A stretch of DNA of 64,000 nucleotides, from assembly GCA_035559815.1 (NCBI GenBank), contig DATMAT010000029.1, positions 2,485-66,484 on the forward strand. The letters are read 5' to 3'. Origin of the DNA: Thermodesulfobacteriota bacterium. Its GTDB lineage: Bacteria > Desulfobacterota_D > UBA1144 > Nemesobacterales > CSP1-2. A model generated the notes under the pieces. The model did no database searches. It had not been told where the DNA came from and saw only the letters and a list, made by a program, of their open reading frames with translations. This document shows, piece by piece, positions 2,930-64,000 of this stretch. Both the position numbers and the translations under genes were made by a program. Each line of letters opens with the position of its first letter. Position 1 is the first letter of the stretch.

Positions 2930-4804
2930 ATGAAAAATTTGATCCTGCTGTTCCTCTTCTTATTCTCCGCGGATATCCTTGCGGAAGAGGAAGAGACTAT
3001 TACGCTTGAGCCGGTGGTTGTCGAAGAAGTACCGGTAGAGCCCCCTCTCGATTACCCTTCCGCTTTTTCAACCGTGATCGACCTCGGTGATTTCGGCGGT
3101 GAGTACAACACCACGTCTGAGATTCTTTCTTTCTCCCCGGGTGTAGTGGTGAGAGACTTCGGCGGGTTTGGCCAGCTCAAAACCTTGTCTATTCGCGGTT
3201 CATCCAATGACCAGGTGGTAATCCTGCTAGACGGCGTGAGGATAAACAGTCCACTGGGGGGAGGGGTGGATTTATCTACCATTCCCATTGATTACGTGGA
3301 GAGATTTGAAATCGTAAGAGGCGGCGCATCGGCCCTGGTAGGCTCTGATGCCATAGGCGGAGTGGTAAACATAGTAACCAAAAAAACAGACGACCCCTTC
3401 ACCAATTTGTCCTTTACATACGGTTCATTCAACACCCTGAGTGCAAACCTCTCCAGGGCTCAGAAATTAGGAAATCTGAGCTACTTCTTCTCTTATACAC
3501 ACGCCCAGAGTGAAGGCGATTTTAAGTTCAAGTCTGTCAATAACCTGACCCTCACCAGGATAAACAACGAGTTCTTCTCCGAAAGCTTTCTGGGGAAGGT
3601 TGAATATGAGCTTAACGGCTGGACGATCGGCTTTCTTAACGAATTTTATTACGACGACAAGGGTGTTCCCGGGCTCGGCGAATTTCAGCAGCCCGATGCG
3701 AACCAAAAAGACCTGAGAAACTTAACCAGCATTAACATTTCTAAGAGTGGATTTCTTAGGCAGGACATAGATTTTGACTTGGTCCTGTTCAACAGGTTTG
3801 ACTGGCTCGAATTCAAAAATCCTGAGCCCACGGTTGGAATCCCTATTGACACCCTCAGCAAGACCTTCAGCTTCGGCTTAAATCCGAGGCTCACCTGGTA
3901 TGCGCCTTACAACCAGATAGTGACCTTCGCCACGGAGGTGAGGGGAGATATTCTAAGGGATGAGGATTTTGATAACCCTAAAAGGTTTACTTTTAGTTCT
4001 TTTCTCAGCGATGAAATCAATCTTTTTGACGACCTCCTTCTCATAAGTCCGATAATACGGTTTGACCTTTACCAAACCTCCGCCGAGGAAAGCACGACCG
4101 ATACCGGATTCTCGCCGAAACTGGGAATTATATTCTCTCCTCTGAAGTATGTTTCTCTAAAAGGTAATGTTGGAAGGTCTTACAGAGCGCCCAGTTTCAG
4201 TGAACTCTTCTTTCCCGAAGAGGGTTTCATCGGCGGAAACCCAAACCTCAAGCCGGAAAGCTCTTTTGATTTTGATTTCGGTCTGGTTTTTTCCCATCCG
4301 CGAGTCGGTTTTGAGATTACCTACTTCAGGAACGAGGTTGATGACCTCATTCTTTTCGTTTTCGTCAGCGCGCAGAGGATAGAGCCATTAAACGTAGGAA
4401 ATGCAACCGAGCAGGGAATCGAGACCAGCCTGGTCTTAAGACCGTTTGATTTTATGGAGCTATTTGCCGGATACACCTTCCTTGACGGTGAGCTCGAGGA
4501 TACCGGGGCGCAGCTTCCGGGAAGGCCCAGAAACAAGTTTGACTTTCGTGGGGTTTTAACATACCGCTCATTCTCGTTCTTCTGGGAGACACATTATGTA
4601 GACAAGATTCCACTTAGTCCATTCCCGGACTCGGCTACCACCGATGCCAGAACCACGAGCGATGTGGGAGGAAAAGTGGAGTGGAAGAATATATTCGTTA
4701 CGCTCGAAGCAAAAAACGTCTTTAACAACCTGGACGTGCAGGACGCCTTAGACTTCCCGCTTCCGGGAAGGACGATTTTTTTTACGGCAGGAATAAAGTT
4801 TTGA
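2930..4804 (+). CDS. btuB: TonB-dependent outer-membrane receptor, BtuB-like (B12 uptake)
   Basis: signal peptide, plug-domain motifs (TLSIRGSS...ILLDGVRIN), C-terminal ...TAGIKF, riboswitch-controlled. Confidence 0.85.
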   Translation: MKNLILLFLFLFSADILAEEEETITLEPVVVEEVPVEPPLDYPSAFSTVIDLGDFGGEYNTTSEILSFSPGVVVRDFGGFGQLKTLSIRGSSNDQVVILLDGVRINSPLGGGVDLSTIPIDYVERFEIVRGGASALVGSDAIGGVVNIVTKKTDDPFTNLSFTYGSFNTLSANLSRAQKLGNLSYFFSYTHAQSEGDFKFKSVNNLTLTRINNEFFSESFLGKVEYELNGWTIGFLNEFYYDDKGVPGLGEFQQPDANQKDLRNLTSINISKSGFLRQDIDFDLVLFNRFDWLEFKNPEPTVGIPIDTLSKTFSFGLNPRLTWYAPYNQIVTFATEVRGDILRDEDFDNPKRFTFSSFLSDEINLFDDLLLISPIIRFDLYQTSAEESTTDTGFSPKLGIIFSPLKYVSLKGNVGRSYRAPSFSELFFPEEGFIGGNPNLKPESSFDFDFGLVFSHPRVGFEITYFRNEVDDLILFVFVSAQRIEPLNVGNATEQGIETSLVLRPFDFMELFAGYTFLDGELEDTGAQLPGRPRNKFDFRGVLTYRSFSFFWETHYVDKIPLSPFPDSATTDARTTSDVGGKVEWKNIFVTLEAKNVFNNLDVQDALDFPLPGRTIFFTAGIKF

Positions 4805-5017: not shown

Positions 5018-6487
5018 ATGAGGTTCCTTATAGTTATTTTCATCCTGGGGATATGGGGATTTATTATCGGCGGGTGTCAGACGAGTGACGGCGGCTCCGG
5101 TTTCATCCCTACCGGCCGCATCGTGGCGGTAGCGGAGAGAAGCAGTTCAGACACGGTTCAAGTTGGCGGACCAAGAGGCTCGGCCACTCCGGGAGCATTT
5201 GTAGGGATTACCAACTTAGATACCGGTGATTTTAAAACCACCAATGTAAGGGATGACGGAAGTTTCTCCGTAGAGTTCGACGCCTCGACCGAGGACATAT
5301 TCAGAGTGGTTATAGAAGAAGACGGCATAGATGAGACGATAGGTGTTTCTATTTTGAGGGATGCCGTGGCCAGAAACATAGCTCAACTTGGCAGCGTACC
5401 CACGGAAATAGTGATAAGGGAAGAAAAAGCTTACGTGGTGAACGGTTTCTCCGATAACATCCAGGTCTTCGACATCAATCAGAGTCCGCCCGAGCAAATA
5501 GGAACGATAGTCTTACCGCCCGGCTCCGACCCGGTGGCTATGGCTTTTTTGGATGACACCCGTGCTTATGTGGCCAATATGATAGGGCAGAGCGTTGCCG
5601 TGGTGAACGTGGTAACAGGGCAGTGCGAGGCAATTATAGCTCGTACTGGCGGAGATTTTTCACCCTGCCAGACTGTGTTTATAGCCGTTGGCGCTTTCGA
5701 AGACCCGTCGGGAGTGGCTATTGCAAACGGTAAGGTTTATGTAACAAACGCTAACCTAGATGACTTCTTTGACCCTATTGGAAACGGGTTTGTAACTGTG
5801 ATCAACACTCAGACAAATCAGTTCATAAAACGTATTGATTCTAGTGGACAGGGGACGAATGAAATAACCGAATTAAACGGGAATATTTATTCCGTAAATG
5901 TGGGAGATACGGATTTCGACACAGATACAGGGGATTTCTTCTGCGACCCGGCCTCTATTCAAAGCATTGATGTCATTAATACTGAATCTGATGATATTGC
6001 AGACTCCATCTTCATTCCTTTAAGCGGTGAAAATCCCTTTGCCTGTAGTCCAAATAAGCTCGAGCCGACACCGGACGGCCGATTCGGATATTTGGGAAGC
6101 GGATTGGCCGGGGTACTGTTCAAAGTTGACCTTTTAAATAATACTCTCATTAGGGGCGCGGATAATCCGATAGTAATAACTTCGGCTGACGACCTTGACG
6201 CAACTTTTGATGTGGAGATTCGTGATGACGGCCTGGCGTTCATAGCTCTTTTTAACTCGGACCAGATTGCGGTGATGGATACACTGGATGATTCAGTAAA
6301 CCCCTTCCCTTTCATAGCCCCTTTTCCTGCTGGCCTCAGGGGGGATAATCCAAATTCTCAGTTCTTTGACGGTATACAGGACATTGCCATAAGGGAAGAT
6401 GGAGAATTCCCGGATGTTTTTTTTATCACCGGAATCAGCAGTCAACTGGGCTCTATAGATACTTCGCTTATACTTCCGCCGGAGTAG
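5018..6487 (+). CDS. beta-propeller (YVTN-like repeat) surface lipoprotein in B12 locus
   Basis: lipobox IIGGC; repeated AYV(A/T)N...VNVVTG / VYVTNAN blades; RBS aaaggagg. Confidence 0.5.
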   Translation: MRFLIVIFILGIWGFIIGGCQTSDGGSGFIPTGRIVAVAERSSSDTVQVGGPRGSATPGAFVGITNLDTGDFKTTNVRDDGSFSVEFDASTEDIFRVVIEEDGIDETIGVSILRDAVARNIAQLGSVPTEIVIREEKAYVVNGFSDNIQVFDINQSPPEQIGTIVLPPGSDPVAMAFLDDTRAYVANMIGQSVAVVNVVTGQCEAIIARTGGDFSPCQTVFIAVGAFEDPSGVAIANGKVYVTNANLDDFFDPIGNGFVTVINTQTNQFIKRIDSSGQGTNEITELNGNIYSVNVGDTDFDTDTGDFFCDPASIQSIDVINTESDDIADSIFIPLSGENPFACSPNKLEPTPDGRFGYLGSGLAGVLFKVDLLNNTLIRGADNPIVITSADDLDATFDVEIRDDGLAFIALFNSDQIAVMDTLDDSVNPFPFIAPFPAGLRGDNPNSQFFDGIQDIAIREDGEFPDVFFITGISSQLGSIDTSLILPPE

Positions 6488-6561: not shown

Positions 6562-6589
6562 GTAGAGACGCATGGCCATGCGTCTCTAC
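6562..6589. repeat. REP (GTAG-type palindrome)
   Basis: gtagagacgcatggccatgcgtctctac, 75 nt after beta-propeller gene. Confidence 0.65.
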
Positions 6590-6741: not shown

Positions 6742-7686
6742 ATGCGAATCTGCTCCTTCCTTCCAAGCACGACGGAGATTGTTTACGCGCTGGGGCTTGG
6801 GGACAACCTGGTAGGGGTGACTCATGAATGCGATTACCCTCCCGAAGCGGCCAGTAAATCCAGGGTAATAATGAGCCTTATCAACCCGGAGGAGCTTTCC
6901 AGCCTGGAAATAGACAGATTGGTAAGTGAAAACCATAAAGCCGGAAAGAGCACCTACATCGTGGAAGAAGAGGCTCTTCGGAAGGCTAACCCGGATATAA
7001 TCCTTACTCAAGGGCTTTGCGATGTTTGTGCCGTCTCCGGGAACGAAGTCATAGAGGCAGTGAAGGTTCTTGGACACAACCCTCAAATAATTTCTCTGGC
7101 ACCGAGTACCATTGGTGAAATCTTGGAAACAATCTTGATTATCGGAGAAGCGACTCAAAAGAAGGAGCAGGCAAGGGAGTTGGTGGACAAGCTCAAATCC
7201 AGGATAGAAAGGGTCAGGTCGTTGCTTGCGGCGGAGAAAGATCGTCCCCGGGTTTTCTGCATGGAATGGCTCGACCCGCCTTATGTGGCCGGGCACTGGG
7301 TTCCGGAGATGGTGGAGATTGCCGGCGGTGATTGTGTGGCCGGGAAACCGGGGAAGCCCTCTTTCCGGGTTTCCTGGGAAGAGATTTTAAACCATGCCCC
7401 ACAGGTCATAGTTCTCATGCCATGCGGTTTTGGTATAGATAAAACCCTCGAGGAGGTGGACGTCTTAACCTCGGTCGATTTCTGGTACAAGATTCCCGCG
7501 GTTAGAAAGGGGCACGTTTATTTAGTGGATGCAAACTCCTACTTCTCCAGGTCAGGACCAAGGGTGGTAGATGGGCTGGAGATAATGGCCAGGATACTCC
7601 ATCCGGAGGTAGTTGATTTTGAAATTCCCAAGGATTCGGTGCTTAACCTAAGAAACCACATTTTCCTTGAGTCTTTTTTGGGATGA
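6742..7686 (+). CDS. BtuF/TroA-like periplasmic-binding-fold cobalamin-binding protein (no signal peptide)
   Basis: LPSTTEIVYALGLGDNLVGVTHECDYP N-terminus typical of class III PBPs (BtuF, FhuD); B12 locus context. Confidence 0.65.
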   Translation: MRICSFLPSTTEIVYALGLGDNLVGVTHECDYPPEAASKSRVIMSLINPEELSSLEIDRLVSENHKAGKSTYIVEEEALRKANPDIILTQGLCDVCAVSGNEVIEAVKVLGHNPQIISLAPSTIGEILETILIIGEATQKKEQARELVDKLKSRIERVRSLLAAEKDRPRVFCMEWLDPPYVAGHWVPEMVEIAGGDCVAGKPGKPSFRVSWEEILNHAPQVIVLMPCGFGIDKTLEEVDVLTSVDFWYKIPAVRKGHVYLVDANSYFSRSGPRVVDGLEIMARILHPEVVDFEIPKDSVLNLRNHIFLESFLG

Positions 7687-33802: not shown

Positions 33803-34873
33803 GTGGCTATGCTTGATACACTTGCAAAAAGACCAATCCTAGGACTTCTAGTTGTGTTTGCGCTGATTGTCGTCTCTATCCCTTTTCAGAAAAGGGTTGA
33901 CGATATAAGAGGTAATTTCAGAGCCATAGAGGAGACCCTCTACCTGACCTCATCCGCGCTTAAGAAAATCTCCTTTGGATACAAAGAAATAGTTGCAGAC
34001 ATCTATTGGCTAAGGGCAATTCAATACTTCGGCGGTAAAAAGATTAAAGAGCAAGATCCGGACCTTCTTTATAAATATTTCGATATACTTACCGATCTGG
34101 ACCCGCAGTTCGTGAATGCATACAGGTTTGGCGGTACGTTTCTGGCTGAACCGCCGCCTTATGGTTTAGGCGATATCGAGAAGGGGACAAAGCTATTCGA
34201 TAAAGGAAGGGAAAACAACCCGGACAACTTTAGAATCCCTCTTGAAGAGGCGTTTGTATATTATCTTTATGCTAAGGACTATGAGAAAGCGGCAGAGCTA
34301 TTTGACGAAGCATCGGAAAAACCCGGTCTCTCGCCTTTTCGCCGGGCATCGATAAAGGGAATGGCAGCATCTGCTCATACTTATGGCGGCAATAGAGAAC
34401 TGTCTAAAAAAATATGGAGAGAAATCTATGAAACCACGCCAAATGAAGGAAGAAAGAATTTTGCTTTCAGAAATCTACAAGAGCTAAATACCATGGATAT
34501 GGAAGACCGCTTGACCGAGGCTTTGAGGGAGTATGTCGAGCGTTATAACGAGCTACCGAAAAACCTGGAAGCCCTAAAAGACGCGGGCATCGTCAAACAA
34601 ATACCCAAGGAGCCACTCGGAGGAAAGTTTATCATAGCTAGTAAACTGAAAGCGGTAAAAAGCTCTACATTGGTGGGTCAACAATTAAACCAAAACCTGG
34701 CATTTTTATCATCTAGAATCCAAAAATTTAAGAAAGAGCATGGTCGGTATCCGAAAGATTTAAATGAGTTAAAAGAGTTTATAGAAAAAGATAGTACAGC
34801 ACAATTCCCAACAAATCCTTTGGGAGAAGATTATGTCTATAATCCGGAGAACGGTGTTATAGCCTCTAATTGA
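33803..34873 (+). CDS. membrane-anchored hypothetical protein (356 aa), helical/TPR-like
   Basis: N-terminal TM helix; rest predicted helical. Confidence 0.4.
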   Translation: MAMLDTLAKRPILGLLVVFALIVVSIPFQKRVDDIRGNFRAIEETLYLTSSALKKISFGYKEIVADIYWLRAIQYFGGKKIKEQDPDLLYKYFDILTDLDPQFVNAYRFGGTFLAEPPPYGLGDIEKGTKLFDKGRENNPDNFRIPLEEAFVYYLYAKDYEKAAELFDEASEKPGLSPFRRASIKGMAASAHTYGGNRELSKKIWREIYETTPNEGRKNFAFRNLQELNTMDMEDRLTEALREYVERYNELPKNLEALKDAGIVKQIPKEPLGGKFIIASKLKAVKSSTLVGQQLNQNLAFLSSRIQKFKKEHGRYPKDLNELKEFIEKDSTAQFPTNPLGEDYVYNPENGVIASN

Positions 34874-35028
34874 GATAATATCAAAAACCTTTTCTAATCA
34901 ACTTCAAGCCAAAACCTTCGATTAATAAAATATAGAAGTTTCCTTATTTAATGAACACCAGAGGGATGCCCTACGCATGAGTGTGTACCTAGGTCATTTG
35001 TGAAAGTAGTAATCCAATGTAGAGGCGC

Positions 35029-35056
35029 AAAATTTTGCGTCTCTACCCGTGGGTGC
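35029..35056. repeat. REP (GTAG-type palindrome)
   Basis: gtagaggcgcaaaattttgcgtctctac. Confidence 0.6.
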
Positions 35057-40870: not shown

Positions 40871-40897
40871 GTAGATACGACCGCGGGTCGTGTCTAC
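40871..40897. repeat. REP (GTAG-type palindrome)
   Basis: gtagatacgaccgcgggtcgtgtctac. Confidence 0.55.
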
Positions 40898-47271: not shown

Positions 47272-47299
47272 GTAGGGGCACGCTGCAGCGTGCCCCTAG
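47272..47299. repeat. REP (GTAG-type palindrome)
   Basis: gtaggggcacgctgcagcgtgcccctag; near-identical copy at 59299. Confidence 0.65.
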
Positions 47300-57222: not shown

Positions 57223-57530
57223 CAATCTGTCATTCCCGCGCAACTTGTCCTCGACCATGATCGGGGAGCGGGAATCCGTCCACCTGTCATTCCCACGCAA
57301 GTGGGAATCCATTGTTTAATTATGGATCCCCGATTAATCTTGTCCCCGCATGTGTCTGGCGGGGAACATTCGGGGATGACAACCAGGGGGATCCCCCGGT
57401 TAAAACGGGGGACGGGGATGACATGCGGAGAGGAACCTCGCTTGATCTCTCGGTTTAACCGGGGTACAGGCATGACCGGAAGACTACTGTCATTCCCGTG
57501 GAAGCGGGAATCCAGTTTTTCAAAAAATGG
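57223..57530. repeat. family C palindromic repeats with nested insertion
   Basis: gtcattcccgcg[caacttgtcctcgaccatgatcgggga]gcgggaatcc etc. Confidence 0.7.
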
Positions 57531-57629
57531 ATCCCCGATTCGATAAAATTCAGTGTGTACTCCATCGTAGGGATAAACTACGACGAAGTAGAACATGAGT
57601 AATCTTTTGACGAGTTCGCCCTTCCCCCG

Positions 57630-57900
57630 GTTAAACCAGGGGACCTGGCTCAGGACGAACGGGCTTTTATTTCATAAAGCCTTTACAGCGGATATACATC
57701 TGCTCATTCCTTCATTGCACTCACCCTTCGTCTCCGCTCAGGGTGAAGTGGTATTAGAATGAGCTTGCCCTTCCTTCATGGTGAGCGGAGTCGAACCATG
57801 AGCCTTTCGCCTCCGCTCAAAGCCTGTCCTGAACCTGCTGAGGGCATAAACTCCGTCGAACCATGGGCCCATCGGTAAACTCTGAGCCTGTCGAAGGATG
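57630..57900. repeat. family A-type repeat cluster
   Basis: cacccttcgtctccgctcagggtgaag...gagtcgaaccatgag... Confidence 0.7.
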
Positions 57901-58626: not shown

Positions 58627-58703
58627 TGATTATTTAGCCACGGAGAACATAGAGACTTCGCTAAGATCAGTCGAGCATTCAAGAATTTTTCTTTGAGCTA
58701 TTA

Positions 58704-58744
58704 AAGCCAGAGAGATTAAACACATCTTTCTGGCTTTTTATTTG
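58704..58744 (+). terminator. intrinsic terminator
   Basis: aaagccagaga...tctttctggc then tttttatttg. Confidence 0.6.
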
Positions 58745-58989
58745 CCCCGTGAGATAAGTTTTACTATCCAACGGGTTGAGATACGCAGTGGTATTAACCC
58801 ACGAAACGAGGGTCTCTCAGGTCTCACGGAATTATCTCTTGGGGTTAATACTGCTTTCCAAAAAATTAGAAACCAGTGGTTCACACTCGCAAACAAGGAC
58901 TTTAGATAGGTAAAAAGTCTTTTTAAAATCAGGTTTACTTTTCTATGTTTGTTATGCAAGTGCTGTTCCAACCCTATTCGTTGAAATTG

Positions 58990-59165
58990 CCTTTTTAACC
59001 CTGCTCACCCTTCGTCTCCGCTCAGGGTGAAGGGCATGGTATTGCTTGGAGTTTTAGACCTGCCTTCATGGTGAGCGGAGTCGAACCATGAGTAGTTCGA
59101 TTGCGCTCAAAGCCTGTCCTGAGGAATAAACTCAGTCGAACCATGGACCCTTCTAAGCATAATCT
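58990..59165. repeat. family A repeat cluster
   Basis: near-copy of 57720-57870. Confidence 0.7.
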
Positions 59166-59298: not shown

Positions 59299-59326
59299 GT
59301 AGGGGCACGCTGCAGCGTGCCCCTAC
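59299..59326. repeat. REP (GTAG-type palindrome)
   Basis: gtaggggcacgctgcagcgtgcccctac. Confidence 0.65.
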
Positions 59327-59561: not shown

Positions 59562-59830
59562 GCAAGAGTTCGTCTGATAGTAATCAAAGGGCTCCAATGA
59601 CGGATAAATAAGAGGAAGCAAACCCCTCTCTTTAATTCCCCCCCTTAGTAAGGGGGGAAATGCAAGGGGGTTAGAAGGGCTATTTGAACGAATAGGATCA
59701 GTACAGCGCTTGCATAGGAAACATCAAAGAGAGTAACCTGATTTTAAGAAGCCGTTTTATCCGTCGAAGAGCCTTGTTTTATAAAGGGTGAATCTGTTGG
59801 TTTTTAATTATTTTTGATAGCAGTGTATAC
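59562..59830. repeat. copy 2 of duplicated conserved noncoding element, followed by hicB 3' fragment (59809-59865)
   Basis: aligns to 9546-9627 and 9938-10060; tacactgctatcaaaaataa corresponds to hicB end gatcactgctgtccaaaataa. Confidence 0.6.
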
Positions 59831-59874: not shown

Positions 59875-59902
59875 GGAGGGGTTCAAAATTTTGAACCCCT
59901 CC
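59875..59902. repeat. REP-like perfect palindrome
   Basis: ggaggggttcaaaattttgaacccctcc. Confidence 0.55.
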
Positions 59903-60312: not shown

Positions 60313-61329
60313 ATGTTTAAGGAATTATTTGGTGAAAAAAATCAAAAAAGGAGGATAGCTTCTATGCTAGAGAAGAATTTTAGCAGGATAAAGTATCTTT
60401 TGTTGTTAGCATTGCTTTTGATGGTGCCGGCCAAATCTTGGGCCGGAGCACCGGGGCTTTTCGACACGGACGGTCTTAATGCTCAGATGGTCGGTTTCTG
60501 GGACCTAAGAAACCGGAACTCATTCGCGCAGGTAACAAACACCAGCGCGCTACCGATAACCGTACACGTCCAGATATTCAATGCGGCATCAGGTTGTTTG
60601 GAGGTTGACTTTTATGACACCTACACCGGGAATGATACCCACGTATATGACCTAAGGGGCATAGTCAGGAATGACGGCGGGCCGTTAAGCATAGTGTTAC
60701 CGGATGGCGGTTTTGGCATAATCGTGGTAACGAATGTGGCTGGGGTGTTCGGTCCGGCACTTGGGAATTTTATCGAGGACTACGTACTGACCGGGAATTT
60801 CCGGGTAGTGGACTTTGCCGGATACGAGTACAGGTCAAATTTTGACGGGGTTCCCAATATTTTAACAGGCCTGGCAGATGATCTCACGTTTAACTTTAAC
60901 AACGTTAACGGGAATAGCCTCTCGGACGTGGTTGGCATAGTGCTGGATGATACCGGGCCTGGATTTTTCGAGGTGATTGCCGCAGGCACCTTTATCACAT
61001 TCGACGTATTCCTTTTTGACCAGTTTGAGAACCCGATTTCCTGCGACCTCTTTACATTTGCCTGTACGGCAAGCTCATTGGACGTCGGTATAAATGGCGC
61101 GCTTCCTAACAGCAGGGGGGCGGGAAGCCTTTGCCCGGCGAATGTTGATACCGTGGGGCACGTAAGGTTGTTTGGCGTAGCCGCGGCTGGCGACTATTTC
61201 ACCGGATTTGTCGGACTAAATAACGGGGACGGAACCGGCAGCATGGACACATGGTGGGGTCCTTTACCTTCCAATGGTGTCGCCGCTCTTGACAGCTTGG
61301 GCCAGGGGGGCTTAAACCTAGGAAACTAA
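60313..61329 (+). CDS. secreted protein, paralogue family with 61385-62812 (signal peptide likely from Met at 60364)
   Basis: shared N-domain (QVTNT...CLEV.F.DT....DTHVYD). Confidence 0.5.
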   Translation: MFKELFGEKNQKRRIASMLEKNFSRIKYLLLLALLLMVPAKSWAGAPGLFDTDGLNAQMVGFWDLRNRNSFAQVTNTSALPITVHVQIFNAASGCLEVDFYDTYTGNDTHVYDLRGIVRNDGGPLSIVLPDGGFGIIVVTNVAGVFGPALGNFIEDYVLTGNFRVVDFAGYEYRSNFDGVPNILTGLADDLTFNFNNVNGNSLSDVVGIVLDDTGPGFFEVIAAGTFITFDVFLFDQFENPISCDLFTFACTASSLDVGINGALPNSRGAGSLCPANVDTVGHVRLFGVAAAGDYFTGFVGLNNGDGTGSMDTWWGPLPSNGVAALDSLGQGGLNLGN

Positions 61330-61384: not shown

Positions 61385-62812
61385 ATGTTAAAGAGGTTGA
61401 AGATAATAAACTTGATGGTGATGGCAAGTTTAATGCTTGTTCTCACCTTTAGCGCCTTCGACAAGGCCAAAGCGCAGGGGCTTACAGCCTGCCCCGGGGT
61501 GCCTTTTGATACCGGCTGGTTTCAATTGAACGTTGATTTTCCAGGGGACGACGTTAAGGTCGGTCTTCTGGGGCAAGCAGAGGCAGCCGGCGCCGGGTTC
61601 ATAGGGGGTATAGACTGGTTATACACCGACAGCTCGCTTTTCAACACCCAGCTAAGCGGCTCCCAGTTAGTAAGCTGGTGGACCCAGGCCCCTGGAAGAA
61701 ACACATCCATACAGGTTACAAACACCGACCCGTTCGATGCGGTCAATATTCACGTGGTGATCATAGGCTCGGACTGTTTAGAGGTAAGGGACTTCTGTGA
61801 TACCTTGACGCCGTTAGATACGCACGTGTACGACTTCGGCAACCTGATAAACAACCTGGGCCAGGACATACCTGATGCCAATATCCAGGGTGAGGAGGGG
61901 TTTGTGGTGATATCCGCGGTTGATTCTTGCCCTAATCCGAATGGCGCCATATCATTTAACGCTCTTGAGGGTCAGTTAAGCGTGATAGACAGTAATCTGG
62001 ATACAGATTACGGGACAAACCTATGGACGAGGCTGGCTGTCACGTTTACTAATGGGGCCTCTGTAGCAGACAACGGGACAACACTAGACGGGGTAAATGC
62101 TGGCTATTTAGGGCCGGATGTGGACCCGATATTTGCAACCGACCTGCTGTTCCAGAACTATGCGGTGCTTGGCGCAGGCCCGGCCGGTGCGGACTTGGTT
62201 CTCATAAACTATTTAGATGTTTATGGACCTCCGTACGATCCGGTACCGATATTCGAGAACTACACCCCGGGGATTTTTGACGATGCGGAGAATTTCGTAA
62301 GCTGTGGAGAGCAGTTCTCATGCGGTTTCCTGAGGTTGGGAATTGATGATGCTATCGTAAATAGCGATGATATTATTGTTGTACCTCCAACCCCAACACC
62401 TGAACCGCCTACGCCATGTTTCAGCGACGAAGATTGTGCCTTGAATGAGTTCTGCGCTGGCGGACAAGTTGGAGCATGCGATGTTTCCGGCGACCCGTGT
62501 ACATCCGATGCTGATTGCCCCGAGGGTGAGGTATGTGAGGGTGCAGTAGCGGGTACTTGCGAGCTTATACCATGTACATCCGATGCTGATTGCCCCGAAG
62601 GTACGGTATGTGATGTGGAAGGTGGTTTCTGCGTGATAGTTACACCGACACCGACACCAACACCTGATGGTGATGGCGGCGGCGGATGTGCGATAGCTGG
62701 ACCGGTCAGTGTTGGAACGGCTATGGCTAACATACTGATACCTCTGGTACCGGTAGCGTTTGCATTCGGTCTCAGCGCACTGAGAAGAAGAAATAGAAAG
62801 GACAATAAGTAA
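61385..62812 (+). CDS. secreted Cys-rich protein with Pro/Thr linkers and GlyGly/MYXO-CTERM-like C-terminal sorting signal
   Basis: signal peptide; CTSDADCPEGxVC repeats; TPTPEPPTP and TPTPTPTP linkers; C-terminal GDGGGGC-hydrophobic helix-RRRNRKDNK. Confidence 0.55.
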   Translation: MLKRLKIINLMVMASLMLVLTFSAFDKAKAQGLTACPGVPFDTGWFQLNVDFPGDDVKVGLLGQAEAAGAGFIGGIDWLYTDSSLFNTQLSGSQLVSWWTQAPGRNTSIQVTNTDPFDAVNIHVVIIGSDCLEVRDFCDTLTPLDTHVYDFGNLINNLGQDIPDANIQGEEGFVVISAVDSCPNPNGAISFNALEGQLSVIDSNLDTDYGTNLWTRLAVTFTNGASVADNGTTLDGVNAGYLGPDVDPIFATDLLFQNYAVLGAGPAGADLVLINYLDVYGPPYDPVPIFENYTPGIFDDAENFVSCGEQFSCGFLRLGIDDAIVNSDDIIVVPPTPTPEPPTPCFSDEDCALNEFCAGGQVGACDVSGDPCTSDADCPEGEVCEGAVAGTCELIPCTSDADCPEGTVCDVEGGFCVIVTPTPTPTPDGDGGGGCAIAGPVSVGTAMANILIPLVPVAFAFGLSALRRRNRKDNK

Positions 62813-62825
62813 ACAAGCGTGACCT

Positions 62826-62853
62826 GTAGGGGTTCAAAATTTCGAACCCCTAC
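62826..62853. repeat. REP (GTAG-type palindrome)
   Basis: gtaggggttcaaaatttcgaacccctac. Confidence 0.65.
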
Positions 62854-62878
62854 ATATTTTATATAAGCGTTGAAAACT

Positions 62879-62917
62879 AAAGCCAGTGAGGCTAATTTTG
62901 TCTCTCTGGCTTTTTTA
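62879..62917 (+). terminator. intrinsic terminator
   Basis: aaagccagtgag...ctctctggc then ttttttattt. Confidence 0.55.
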
Positions 62918-62989
62918 TTTGCCCTAAGAGATTATTTTATTACCGATTGGGTGAAGGTCTAATTTTATTTCACAGGGGGAATGTTAAAG

Positions 62990-63531
62990 ATGAGTTATGA
63001 TCCTGATAGACATCAGCGTAGGTCTATTAGATTAAAAGATTATGATTATTCTCAACCAGGAGCGTATTTTGTAACGATATGTACGCGTGACCGGGAATGC
63101 CTTTTGGTGATATTGTTGAAGGTCGAATGTTTTTGAATGAAATCGGTTTTCTTGTGAGTGATGAATGGATCCGTTCAGTTCAATTACGAAAAGAAATCGA
63201 ATTAGATGAGTTTGTTGTAATGCCAAATCATCTACACGGTATTGTTATAATTAGAGAATCAAATGTAGGGGCGACCGGCCGGTCGCCCCTACCTAAGGGA
63301 CCCAAGCCGAGATCAATAGGGGCGTTTATTGCAGGTTTTAAATCCTCTGCAACAAAACGAATAAATATAATGCGTGGTACCTCCGGTTTCCGTATATGGC
63401 AACGTAATTATTACGAACGCATCATCCGAAACGAAGATGAATTAAATGAGATCAGAGAGTATATCGCTAATAACCCCCTAAAATGGGAATCGGATGAAGA
63501 AAACCCGGACGTTTACCCTATGGCTTTTTAA
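62990..63531 (+). pseudogene. REP-associated tyrosine transposase (RAYT, IS200/IS605 Y1 family), frameshifted
   Basis: frame 2 from 62990: MSYDPDRHQRRSIRLKDYDYSQPGAYFVTICTRDREC; frame 1 from 63097: (M)PFGDIVEGRMFLNEIG...VVMPNHLHGIVII...WQRNYYERIIRNEDELNEIREYIANNP; one missing T in ctttt(t)gg joins them. Confidence 0.65.
63265..63292. repeat. REP-type palindrome embedded in RAYT coding sequence
   Basis: gtaggggcgaccggccggtcgcccctac encodes VGATGRSPL. Confidence 0.5.
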
Positions 63532-64000
63532 AACCGATTAATTACAATTCTCTAAAATCATGTCAATCCTGGTGCACTACGGTGAGCTTGCCCTCAAGGG
63601 TAAGAACCGGAGATTATTCGAAAACAAACTCATAGAGAATATTAAAAAGGCTACCGGTGGAAAGGTCGGAAGGTTCGAGGGGCGCCTATTAGTGGAGGAC
63701 GGAGATTCGGATTCGTTAAATAATGTTTTTGGTATATCCTGGTTCGCCCCGTCATATAGAGTTAAAAAAGACCTAAAAGAGATAAAGGAATTGATAATAG
63801 AAAAAACGGGAGAAAGAATAAATGGGGATCCCACTTTCGGGATATTTGTAAAAAGGGTGGATAAAAAGTTTCCCTATACCTCTATGGAGGTAGCGAAAGA
63901 TATAGGCGAGGAGATAGTTAGAAAATATAAGCTCGAGGTGAGTCTTAAGAATCCGGAGCTTCCTATTTATGTAGAGATCGCCGACGAGGTTTTTGTCCAT

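Follow-up and report, generated by a model that had tools for sequence, protein, structure and literature searches.

A probable subclass 2.4 REP-associated tyrosine transposase gene, interrupted by a one-base frameshift and carrying an in-frame REP palindrome, in a Thermodesulfobacteriota bacterium

Among the REP-associated tyrosine transposases (RAYTs, or TnpAREP), which are named after the repetitive extragenic palindromes (REPs), the group that comes closest to the gene described here is subclass 2.4 of Quentin, Siguier, Chandler and Fichant (2018, BMC Genomics 19:475, PMC6006769), which corresponds to RAYT Group 4 of Bertels, Gallie and Rainey (2017). Its members, with a median of 194 aa, are marked by NH[IFV]H, WQ and YIxNNP and by a variable insertion between beta3 and alphaC, and their REPs have a "double foot", in which a 5' GT[AG]G is accompanied by a 3' C[TC]AC (PMC6006769). 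In-frame REPs inside the tnpAREP genes of this subclass, between the HuH motif and the tyrosine, were presented as a "remarkable and unique feature" and read by the authors as tolerated in a peripheral loop (PMC6006769). Group 4 is rare in Proteobacteria and extends over 17 classes, and its flanking 16-mers are only moderately repeated (Bertels et al. 2017). REPs headed by GTAG lie mostly downstream of open reading frames (ORFs), and intragenic copies occur in other genes too (Di Nocera et al. 2013). Here we analyze a stretch of 64,000 nucleotides from a Thermodesulfobacteriota bacterium (GCA_035559815.1, contig DATMAT010000029.1), referred to below as the window, in which two overlapping ORFs upstream of thiI very probably make up one chromosomally resident RAYT gene of subclass 2.4, split by a deletion of one nucleotide.

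The two ORFs (62981/62990..63136 and 63097..63531, forward strand), the second of which is in the -1 frame with respect to the first, are located between a gene for a 475-aa secreted-looking protein (61385..62812) and thiI (from 63561). The addition of one base in CC-TTTT-GG restores a single ORF of 180 aa, in which RDRECLFGDIVEG is followed by MPNHLHGIVII, WQRNYYERIIR and EYIANNP. The preliminary description of this locus, made from the sequence alone, had placed the HuH and C-terminal motifs in the second ORF and the N-terminus of a RAYT in the upstream frame from 62990. Both placements were borne out: H81-L-H83, WQ and YIANNP were mapped to the downstream fragment (Table 1), with Y158 as the single catalytic tyrosine on a C-terminal helix, and homologous proteins begin M-x-Y-D/N-P. 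When the joined frames were compared with the Y1_Tnp and RAYT profiles, as had been proposed, the Pfam model Y1_Tnp (PF01797) matched the repaired protein with 28.6 bits against a cut-off of 23, and the top NCBIfam match was REP_Tyr_transpos (NF047646; 71.8 bits, E 5e-20). The downstream ORF is an exact NCBI entry of 144 aa, "MAG TPA: transposase [Thermodesulfobacteriota bacterium]", on a contig of 116.5 kb. The sole PDB sequence match of the repaired protein is Escherichia coli TnpAREP (4er8), in an alignment that spans the W-Q...E-[H/R]..R segment and the tyrosine motif, and in which phmmer places W137, Q138, E143, R144 and R147 at the GTAG-reading residues W94, Q95, E100, H101 and R104. An AlphaFold (AF2) model, for which 37 homologues were used, reached a pLDDT of 82.9 (below 50 at residues 95-102). 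Its best Foldseek match was 4er8_A, the E. coli enzyme in complex with a REP (E 2e-5, TM 0.58 on the target), followed by the ISDra2, IS608 and IS200 transposases, and the top 30 matches were all Y1 transposases. Homologues number approximately 8000, and those among the matches listed consist of one ORF each, about 144-290 aa long and in most cases 178-220 aa.

The gene occupies a stable chromosomal position and has a low copy number, unlike an insertion sequence (IS), as observed in the 64 kb and at the thiI locus of relatives. A tblastn search of the window found no other RAYT copies or remnants beyond chance-level matches, and the gene is present at the same site upstream of thiI in four related contigs (L148, L147, L149 and L150), which rules out its recent horizontal acquisition at this locus. 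An autonomous IS of the IS200/IS605 type, whose ends would be the hairpins, is an extremely improbable explanation. The Y1/HUH fold and the hairpin-guided logic of single-strand cleavage are common to the RAYT and to the TnpA proteins of that family (IS608, ISDra2), and the Pfam family itself bears the name "Transposase IS200 like"; however, the NCBIfam IS200 model (NF033573) reached only 12.8 bits against a cut-off of 55, and YIANNP is the Y---NP motif of TnpAREP class 2 rather than the Y---Q of IS200 (PMC6006769). IS200/IS605 elements are mobile and multi-copy, with left and right subterminal hairpins and often a tnpB gene, and none of these features was seen in the window, whose ORFs include no tnpB and which has no second copy of the gene, whereas in relatives of about 80-95% nucleotide identity both its chromosomal site and its neighbours are unchanged.

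The interruption of the gene comes down to one base in the codons for Leu38 and Phe39. That a single base is missing had been recognized in the preliminary description, which put the T-run at 63101-63104 instead of 63102-63105. All 36 aligned homologues read ...C-L/I/V-F/L-G... across the site in one frame, and the related metagenomic contig L148, whose flanks are 85-95% identical, holds, at the same locus upstream of thiI, an intact RAYT of 177 aa that reads ...CLFGD.... From its codons (CAA TGT TTG TTT GGT GAT) and those of the window (GAA TGC CT- TTT GGT GAT) it follows that exactly one base of the Leu-Phe pair is absent. If the deletion is real, this copy would be freshly inactivated: an N-terminal peptide of 48 aa would be all that could be made, apart possibly from a product of 144 aa without the first core beta-strand, and we take both to be inactive. 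A long-decayed pseudogene is ruled out by comparison with contig L149, the nearest sister at 94.8% nucleotide identity, which begins inside the in-gene palindrome and therefore lacks the frameshift site: over the 85 codons of the RAYT 3' part, the rates of nonsynonymous and synonymous substitution were dN 0.031 and dS 0.226 (dN/dS 0.14), and the neighbouring thiI gave a dN/dS of 0.15 in the same comparison. Thus, the gene was under normal purifying selection until very recently, and the lesion, if it is real at all, is fresh.

It is important to consider that the missing base might be a sequencing or assembly error, in which case the gene would be intact and the enzyme active in its host; this is a possibility to be taken seriously, if an unlikely one. 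The dN/dS value, which matches that of a housekeeping gene next door, the lack of further lesions, the integrity of every catalytic motif and the homopolymeric nature of the site all speak for an error, whereas a homopolymer of four bases is short for a systematic consensus error and the contig of the metagenome-assembled genome agrees base for base with the Logan assembly of run SRR7882662 (L001), which matches the window without a single difference over 2624 nt, the run of four Ts included. This agreement argues against an assembler artefact, but both assemblies probably go back to the same underlying reads. A programmed -1 ribosomal frameshift or transcriptional slippage, regulating RAYT dosage as in some IS families, is far less probable. 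The shift needed is indeed -1, and on C CUU UUG the tRNA in the A site could pair anew with UUU; nevertheless, no canonical X XXY YYZ heptamer is present, P-site re-pairing from CUU to CCU would be poor, and four Ts are too few for transcription to slip efficiently. In addition, the homologues listed are single ORFs, with 36 of 36 aligned sequences and the same-locus orthologue of L148 read in one frame.

The repaired protein was compared with the RAYTs for which more is known. E. coli TnpAREP (4ER8; Group 2, subclass 2.2) is its best structural match, with W94, Q95, E100 and R104 conserved and the Y...NP motif in common, but the sequence identity is 22% and H101 corresponds to R in the window protein, a replacement known in subclasses 2.5 and 2.7 (PMC6006769). 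The E. coli protein also has a C-terminal tail domain, which subclass 2.4 lacks, and its REPs are imperfect, bulged and single-footed, are found in bacterial interspersed mosaic elements (BIMEs) and have no in-gene counterpart. The Group 3 (subclass 2.5) RAYTs of Stenotrophomonas and Pseudomonas have perfect REP stems, as in the window, and their cleavage requires GTAG together with a perfect stem, a loop base being critical (Corneloup et al. 2021). This group may serve as the best available model for the reading of perfect palindromes, but its REPs are short (8-bp stem), single-footed, high-copy and REPIN-forming, its HuH motif is DH[LF]H, and an in-gene REP is not reported there. With subclass 2.4 the window protein has in common its length (180 aa, for a subclass of about 180-194 aa), WQ, YIANNP and a variable insertion after the HuH strand; further common features are double-foot REPs (in the window, six GTAG...CTAC and two with a mutated foot), an in-frame in-gene REP, a low copy number and a patchy distribution over phyla. 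A REP with a 5' GT[AG]G foot lies within 1000 nt of the gene, namely the upstream copy at 62826-62853, and another is the in-gene copy at 63265-63292. The differences from published members are the host, a Thermodesulfobacteriota, the NHLH motif in place of NH[IFV]H, the frameshift, and the flanking REPs, of which there is just one, differing in stem subfamily from the in-gene copy. The object in the window is very probably a frameshifted Thermodesulfobacteriota allele of a kind described in 2018.

Eight perfect or near-perfect palindromes of 27-28 nt were identified in the window, six of the form GTAG...CTAC, one GTAG...CTAG and one GGAG...CTCC. All of them had been listed in the preliminary description, with two points to correct: its seven GTAG...CTAC copies are strictly six, since the copy at 47272 ends in CTAG, and the copy placed at 35029 starts 10 nt earlier (35019-35046). 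The REP said to lie 140 nt upstream of the RAYT start is there, 137 nt before the ATG at 62990. The GGAG start at 59875 was confirmed, and it is paired with CTCC. According to their stem interiors, the palindromes form four subfamilies: A (47272 and 59299; GGGCACGCTGCAGCGTGCCC), B (59875 and 62826; GGGTTCAAAATTT[T/C]GAACCC), C (6562, 35019 and 40871), with A-containing feet of the form GTAGAG.. or GTAGAT.., and D (GGGCGACCGGCCGGTCGCCC), represented by the in-gene copy only. The pattern GTAGGGG-N-CCCCTAC was matched three times in the window and never in 100 shuffles, and palindromes of the form GTA...TAC with at least 80% self-complementarity numbered eight against 0-2 in 20 shuffles, two of them (14036 and 61992) not being REP-like. 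Folded as single-stranded DNA, all eight palindromes give hairpins, with energies between -9.7 and -16.6 kcal/mol and z-scores between -5.6 and -7.6. The extragenic copies are found between housekeeping genes, mostly 14-146 nt past a stop codon. Downstream of the RAYT there is no REP, in a gap of only 29 nt between its stop and thiI (63532-63560), and an Rfam scan of the 64 kb placed no family on the palindromes, its only match being a cobalamin riboswitch.

The palindromes might be held to be unrelated hairpins, such as intrinsic terminators or chance structures, instead of a REP family, and the preliminary description had named unrelated stem sequences as the observation that would speak against its reading. 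In this respect the result is divided: the interiors do differ, but the length of 27-28 nt, the zero or short loop and the GTAG/CTAC feet are common to the eight, and interior differences are normal for the REP family to judge by the variability across 80 other loci. The position of most copies downstream of genes and the T-rich sequence that follows 40871, 62826 and the antisense strand of 63265 would suit terminators. However, the REP at 62826 follows the stop of the upstream gene and precedes a separate terminator hairpin of that gene (at about 62878-62924), which is kept in relatives, the exact subfamily A 28-mer recurs in 58 metagenome stretches, in some cases within RAYT genes, and the same architecture is found around RAYT genes in dozens of phyla. 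The unrelated-hairpin explanation is therefore very improbable.

The in-gene palindrome was analyzed across a family set of 80 homologous loci, with one representative genome per species, from Chloroflexota, Cyanobacteria, Nitrospirota, Desulfobacterota, Planctomycetota, Bacteroidota, Patescibacteria, Atribacteria and others. In the window it encodes residues 93-101, inside a coil (89-109) between a strand (81-88) and a helix (110-129) of the AF2 model. The preliminary description had noted a variant REP within the coding sequence; its location was right, but it is not a stray variant, being the published hallmark of the subclass (PMC6006769). The same loop holds a palindrome, with 10 bp or more in its stem, at 65 of the 80 loci (+255 to +340 nt), mostly in the form GTAGGGGC-N-GCCCCTAC, with interiors that vary between genomes and remain perfectly self-complementary. 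At 52 loci where internal and external palindromes could be paired, identity over the central 16 positions was 0.80, against 0.46 after permutation (maximum 0.52 in 1000 permutations), and perfect matches between them numbered 20 where 0.6 were expected. The palindrome is read in frame 0 (VGA....PL) in 26 cases and in frame 1 (.RG....APT) in 16, while frame 2, in which GTAG would give a TAG stop, is never used. The exact 28-mer of the window recurs, 28/28, in the genes of four close homologues (P0025, P0026, P0009 and P0017), and the five genes that share it are 58-66% identical to each other in nucleotide sequence, with 29-42% identity at third codon positions elsewhere. At one locus (L082) the identical 28-mer also stands on both sides of the RAYT gene, and at three others (L086-L088) no second copy was found within 7-10 kb. 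Conservation at the protein level behind VGATGRSPL was rejected, as two frames are used (26:16:0) and synonymous sites are invariant inside the palindrome while third positions outside it are 29-42% identical; the use of two frames and the invariant synonymous sites place the conservation at the DNA level.

The identity of the in-gene REP among diverged orthologues points either to selection on the hairpin or to repeated overwriting by the REP family, and we favour overwriting, or homogenization, in a tolerant loop. Selection would make the in-gene REP a cis-acting element, that is, a binding or cleavage site for self-sensing or self-limitation or a resident reference copy of the cognate REP, an explanation that we consider possible but doubtful. 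It would account for the 28/28 identity in five genes that are otherwise about 60-65% identical in nucleotide sequence, including loci without a second copy within 7-10 kb, for the constant loop position of the palindrome at 65 of 80 loci, for its covariation with the flanking REPs, and for a relative at the window locus in which the internal REP and the first two-thirds of the gene have been exchanged and the 3' end kept. Nevertheless, the same facts fit re-insertion or gene conversion from genomic REPs into a permissive disordered loop, which is the view of the authors who described the subclass (PMC6006769), and 15 of the 80 genes have no such palindrome. Intragenic insertions of this general kind are known from the Rickettsia palindromic elements and from REPs in repair genes (Di Nocera et al. 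2013), where the palindrome is likewise translated in frame as a surface peptide and the host protein stays intact; the difference is that here the host gene belongs to the REP-processing enzyme family itself and that one fixed loop is used across phyla.

The REPs outside the gene are of other subfamilies than the in-gene copy. With up to three mismatches allowed, the D core was found nowhere else in the 64 kb, and this single occurrence, together with the family-wide match between internal and flanking palindromes, indicates that the seven extragenic REPs are probably not the cognate set of this RAYT, nor this copy of the gene the enzyme that serves them. The exact subfamily A 28-mer occurs in 58 metagenome stretches of the Joint Genome Institute (JGI), in four of them inside RAYT homologues, in the same loop and read GRGTLQRAPT, and in 54 without a RAYT homologue; subfamily A is thus carried by a different RAYT lineage. 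Among 87 related loci, a search for the A, B and C cores of the window returned only relatives with two mismatches. REP A (59299) is present at the orthologous site in contig L102, which is 94% identical over 2.4 kb, and REP B (62826) occupies the same place in L148 with small differences, so at least these two insertions predate the strain splits.

At the RAYT locus itself, the related strains hold two alleles. When the window is aligned with L148, identity is 85-97% in the flanking genes and over the final 130 nt of the RAYT (from W137) but falls to 55-75% in the 5' two-thirds of the gene (62930-63400), and the in-gene REP of L148 is a different one in the other frame (GTAGGGGCGGTTCGCGAACCGCCCCTAC, read RRGGSRTAPT). 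L147 goes with L148, and L149 and L150 go with the window. Judged by these alignments, the exchanged part appears to be the HuH half with its REP, the GTAG-reading and tyrosine part being common to both alleles, and the exchanged 5' part may be what sets the hairpin specificity. One could go further and suppose that the cognate hairpin is maintained as a resident copy within the gene, and that this in-gene REP moves as one cassette with the 5' two-thirds (HuH and hairpin binding) while the 3' part, with its GTAG-reading residues and catalytic tyrosine, stays; we put this forward only tentatively and think it rather unlikely. If it were true, RAYT specificity would be exchanged between genomes or paralogues by a module swap, and the in-gene hairpin would be a self-recognition or regulatory site, or a template.

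As for function, work on the enzymes of E. coli, Stenotrophomonas maltophilia and Marinomonas (PMC3333891, PMC3479197, PMC8266576) suggests that the intact enzyme would bind a REP folded as a single-stranded DNA hairpin, read its GTAG foot, and cut and rejoin single-stranded DNA beside it, by which REPs would be spread and reshuffled. For perfect-palindrome REPs, a perfect stem and particular loop bases would also be needed, and a double-foot REP would offer the same substrate on both strands. Several points weigh against the interpretation given above. The repaired protein, at 71.8 bits, does not reach the equivalog cut-off of 80 bits of REP_Tyr_transpos. Its HuH motif is NHLH, with an L outside the published NH[IFV]H, an L that is common among the homologues with in-gene REPs in our alignment A1. 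The deletion may be an error. The mechanism, for subclass 2.4, would be one carried over from other subclasses. Finally, the view that the extragenic REPs belong to another enzyme is based on 64 kb of the genome, and D-type REPs or RAYT paralogues may exist elsewhere in it.

Taken alone, the gene in the window is one more RAYT with REPs, from a poorly studied phylum and with a one-base lesion that, if real, is fresh. The in-gene REP can be seen as a built-in label of the REP family of a RAYT, which could be used in metagenomes to pair RAYT paralogues with REP subfamilies and may help studies of REP/RAYT co-evolution; this idea is founded on the DNA-level identity of in-gene copies across diverged orthologues, their match to the flanking REPs and the module swap at one locus. 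There is also a practical side, as perfect palindromes of 28 nt yield spurious VGA..PL and RG..APT peptides in ORF calls and appear to break short-read assemblies. The coordinates of the features are given in Table 1.

Table 1. Positions of the REPs and of the RAYT gene parts in the 64,000-nt window.
Feature	Position	Strand	Sequence or remarks
Extragenic REP, subfamily C	6562..6589		GTAGAGACGCATGGCCATGCGTCTCTAC; 75 nt past the stop of ORF 5018..6487
Extragenic REP, subfamily C	35019..35046		GTAGAGGCGCAAAATTTTGCGTCTCTAC; 146 nt past the stop of ORF 33803..34873, upstream of an SLT-domain gene
Extragenic REP, subfamily C	40871..40897		GTAGATACGACCGCGGGTCGTGTCTAC; between two minus-strand genes, upstream of an NAPRTase gene
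Extragenic REP, subfamily A	47272..47299		Last C changed to G (CTAG); 24 nt past the glutamate dehydrogenase stop, just before thiD
Extragenic REP, subfamily A	59299..59326		GTAGGGGCACGCTGCAGCGTGCCCCTAC; also at the orthologous position in L102
REP, subfamily B variant	59875..59902		Both feet changed, compensatory (GGAG...CTCC)
Extragenic REP, subfamily B	62826..62853		GTAGGGGTTCAAAATTTCGAACCCCTAC; 14 nt past the stop of the upstream gene, 137 nt before ATG 62990
RAYT, likely true start	ATG 62990	+	Shine-Dalgarno AGGGGG at 62974-62979; start of homologues M-x-Y-D/N-P
RAYT 5' fragment	62990..63136	+	Codes for residues 1-38; beyond them the frame is wrong up to the stop
RAYT 3' fragment	63097..63531	+	NCBI annotation: 144-aa "transposase"
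Frameshift site (T-run)	63102..63105	+	One base missing in the Leu38-Phe39 codons (CT-TTT), frame shifts -1
HuH motif H81-L-H83	63229-63237	+	In the RAYT 3' fragment
In-gene double-foot REP, subfamily D	63265..63292		GTAGGGGCGACCGGCCGGTCGCCCCTAC; 28-nt perfect palindrome, read in frame as VGATGRSPL
W137-Q138	63397-63402	+	In the RAYT 3' fragment
Catalytic-tyrosine motif YIANNP (Y158)	63460-63477	+	In the RAYT 3' fragment

Further observations were made on the RAYT family and its palindromes. Both L149 and L147 begin, at their position 1, inside the in-gene 28-nt palindrome of the RAYT, which hides the 5' half of the gene in these sister strains; perfect palindromes of this length thus appear to break short-read assemblies. 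Many homologous ORFs (P0004, P0016, P0063, P0080, P0098 and others in alignment A1) have N- or C-terminal extensions such as VGATGRSPLQ, VGAHGRAPLQ and GATCRSPEGEGTSPLRK, which are flanking REPs read through by gene callers and give rise to spurious low-complexity "protein" tails in databases. In contig L083 (9771-10373), a RAYT homologue of 66% identity with the same in-gene 28-mer is located between the genes for the F and A subunits of a V-type ATPase, and its start and stop overlap the neighbouring genes like those of an ordinary operon member.

The region around the RAYT gene has other repeated sequences. A second, unrelated repeat family has a unit of about 150 nt (CTCACCCTTCGTCTCCGCTCAGGGTGAAG ... 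GGTGAGCGGAGTCGAACCATGAG...) at 57720-57873 and 59004-59153, 1.28 kb apart and 87-100% identical, and short hairpin repeats (CTGTCATTCCCGCG... and TCCCCCGGTTAAAACGGGGGAC) are present as well. The repeated sequences also take in 57227-57520 and 57392-57644, and a similar motif ends contig L001 past the end of the window. The segment 58740-60310 (about 1.6 kb) contains no ORF longer than 84 aa and no Rfam match, and may represent decayed genes or an unannotated RNA; it includes the REPs at 59299 and 59875, one copy of the 150-nt repeat and a palindrome of G/C runs at 59635-59661. Two near-duplicate terminator modules, 58702-58748 and 62878-62924 (AAAGCCAGAGAG...CTCTGGCTTTTTTATTTGCCC, 72% over 47 nt), close two genes 4 kb apart, and the second of them is kept in L148. 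The adjacent paralogous genes 60313..61329 and 61385..62812 encode secreted-looking products with the common motif (Q/V)VTNT...VHV.I....CLEV.DF.DT.T..DTHVYD, and the product of the latter has tandem Cys-rich CTSDADCPEG.VC repeats, with weak Pfam matches to Dickkopf_N and DUF7107, and a C-terminal hydrophobic segment followed by an RRRNRK tail, similar to a sorting signal.

At the other end of the window, the cobalamin riboswitch (Rfam RF00174, 108.8 bits) is located at 2658-2851 on the forward strand, directly upstream of a TonB-dependent receptor gene (2930..4804; Plug and beta-barrel domains), and a gene for a periplasmic binding protein (6742..7686) follows further on, making this a B12 uptake locus with a riboswitch and a TonB-dependent receptor.

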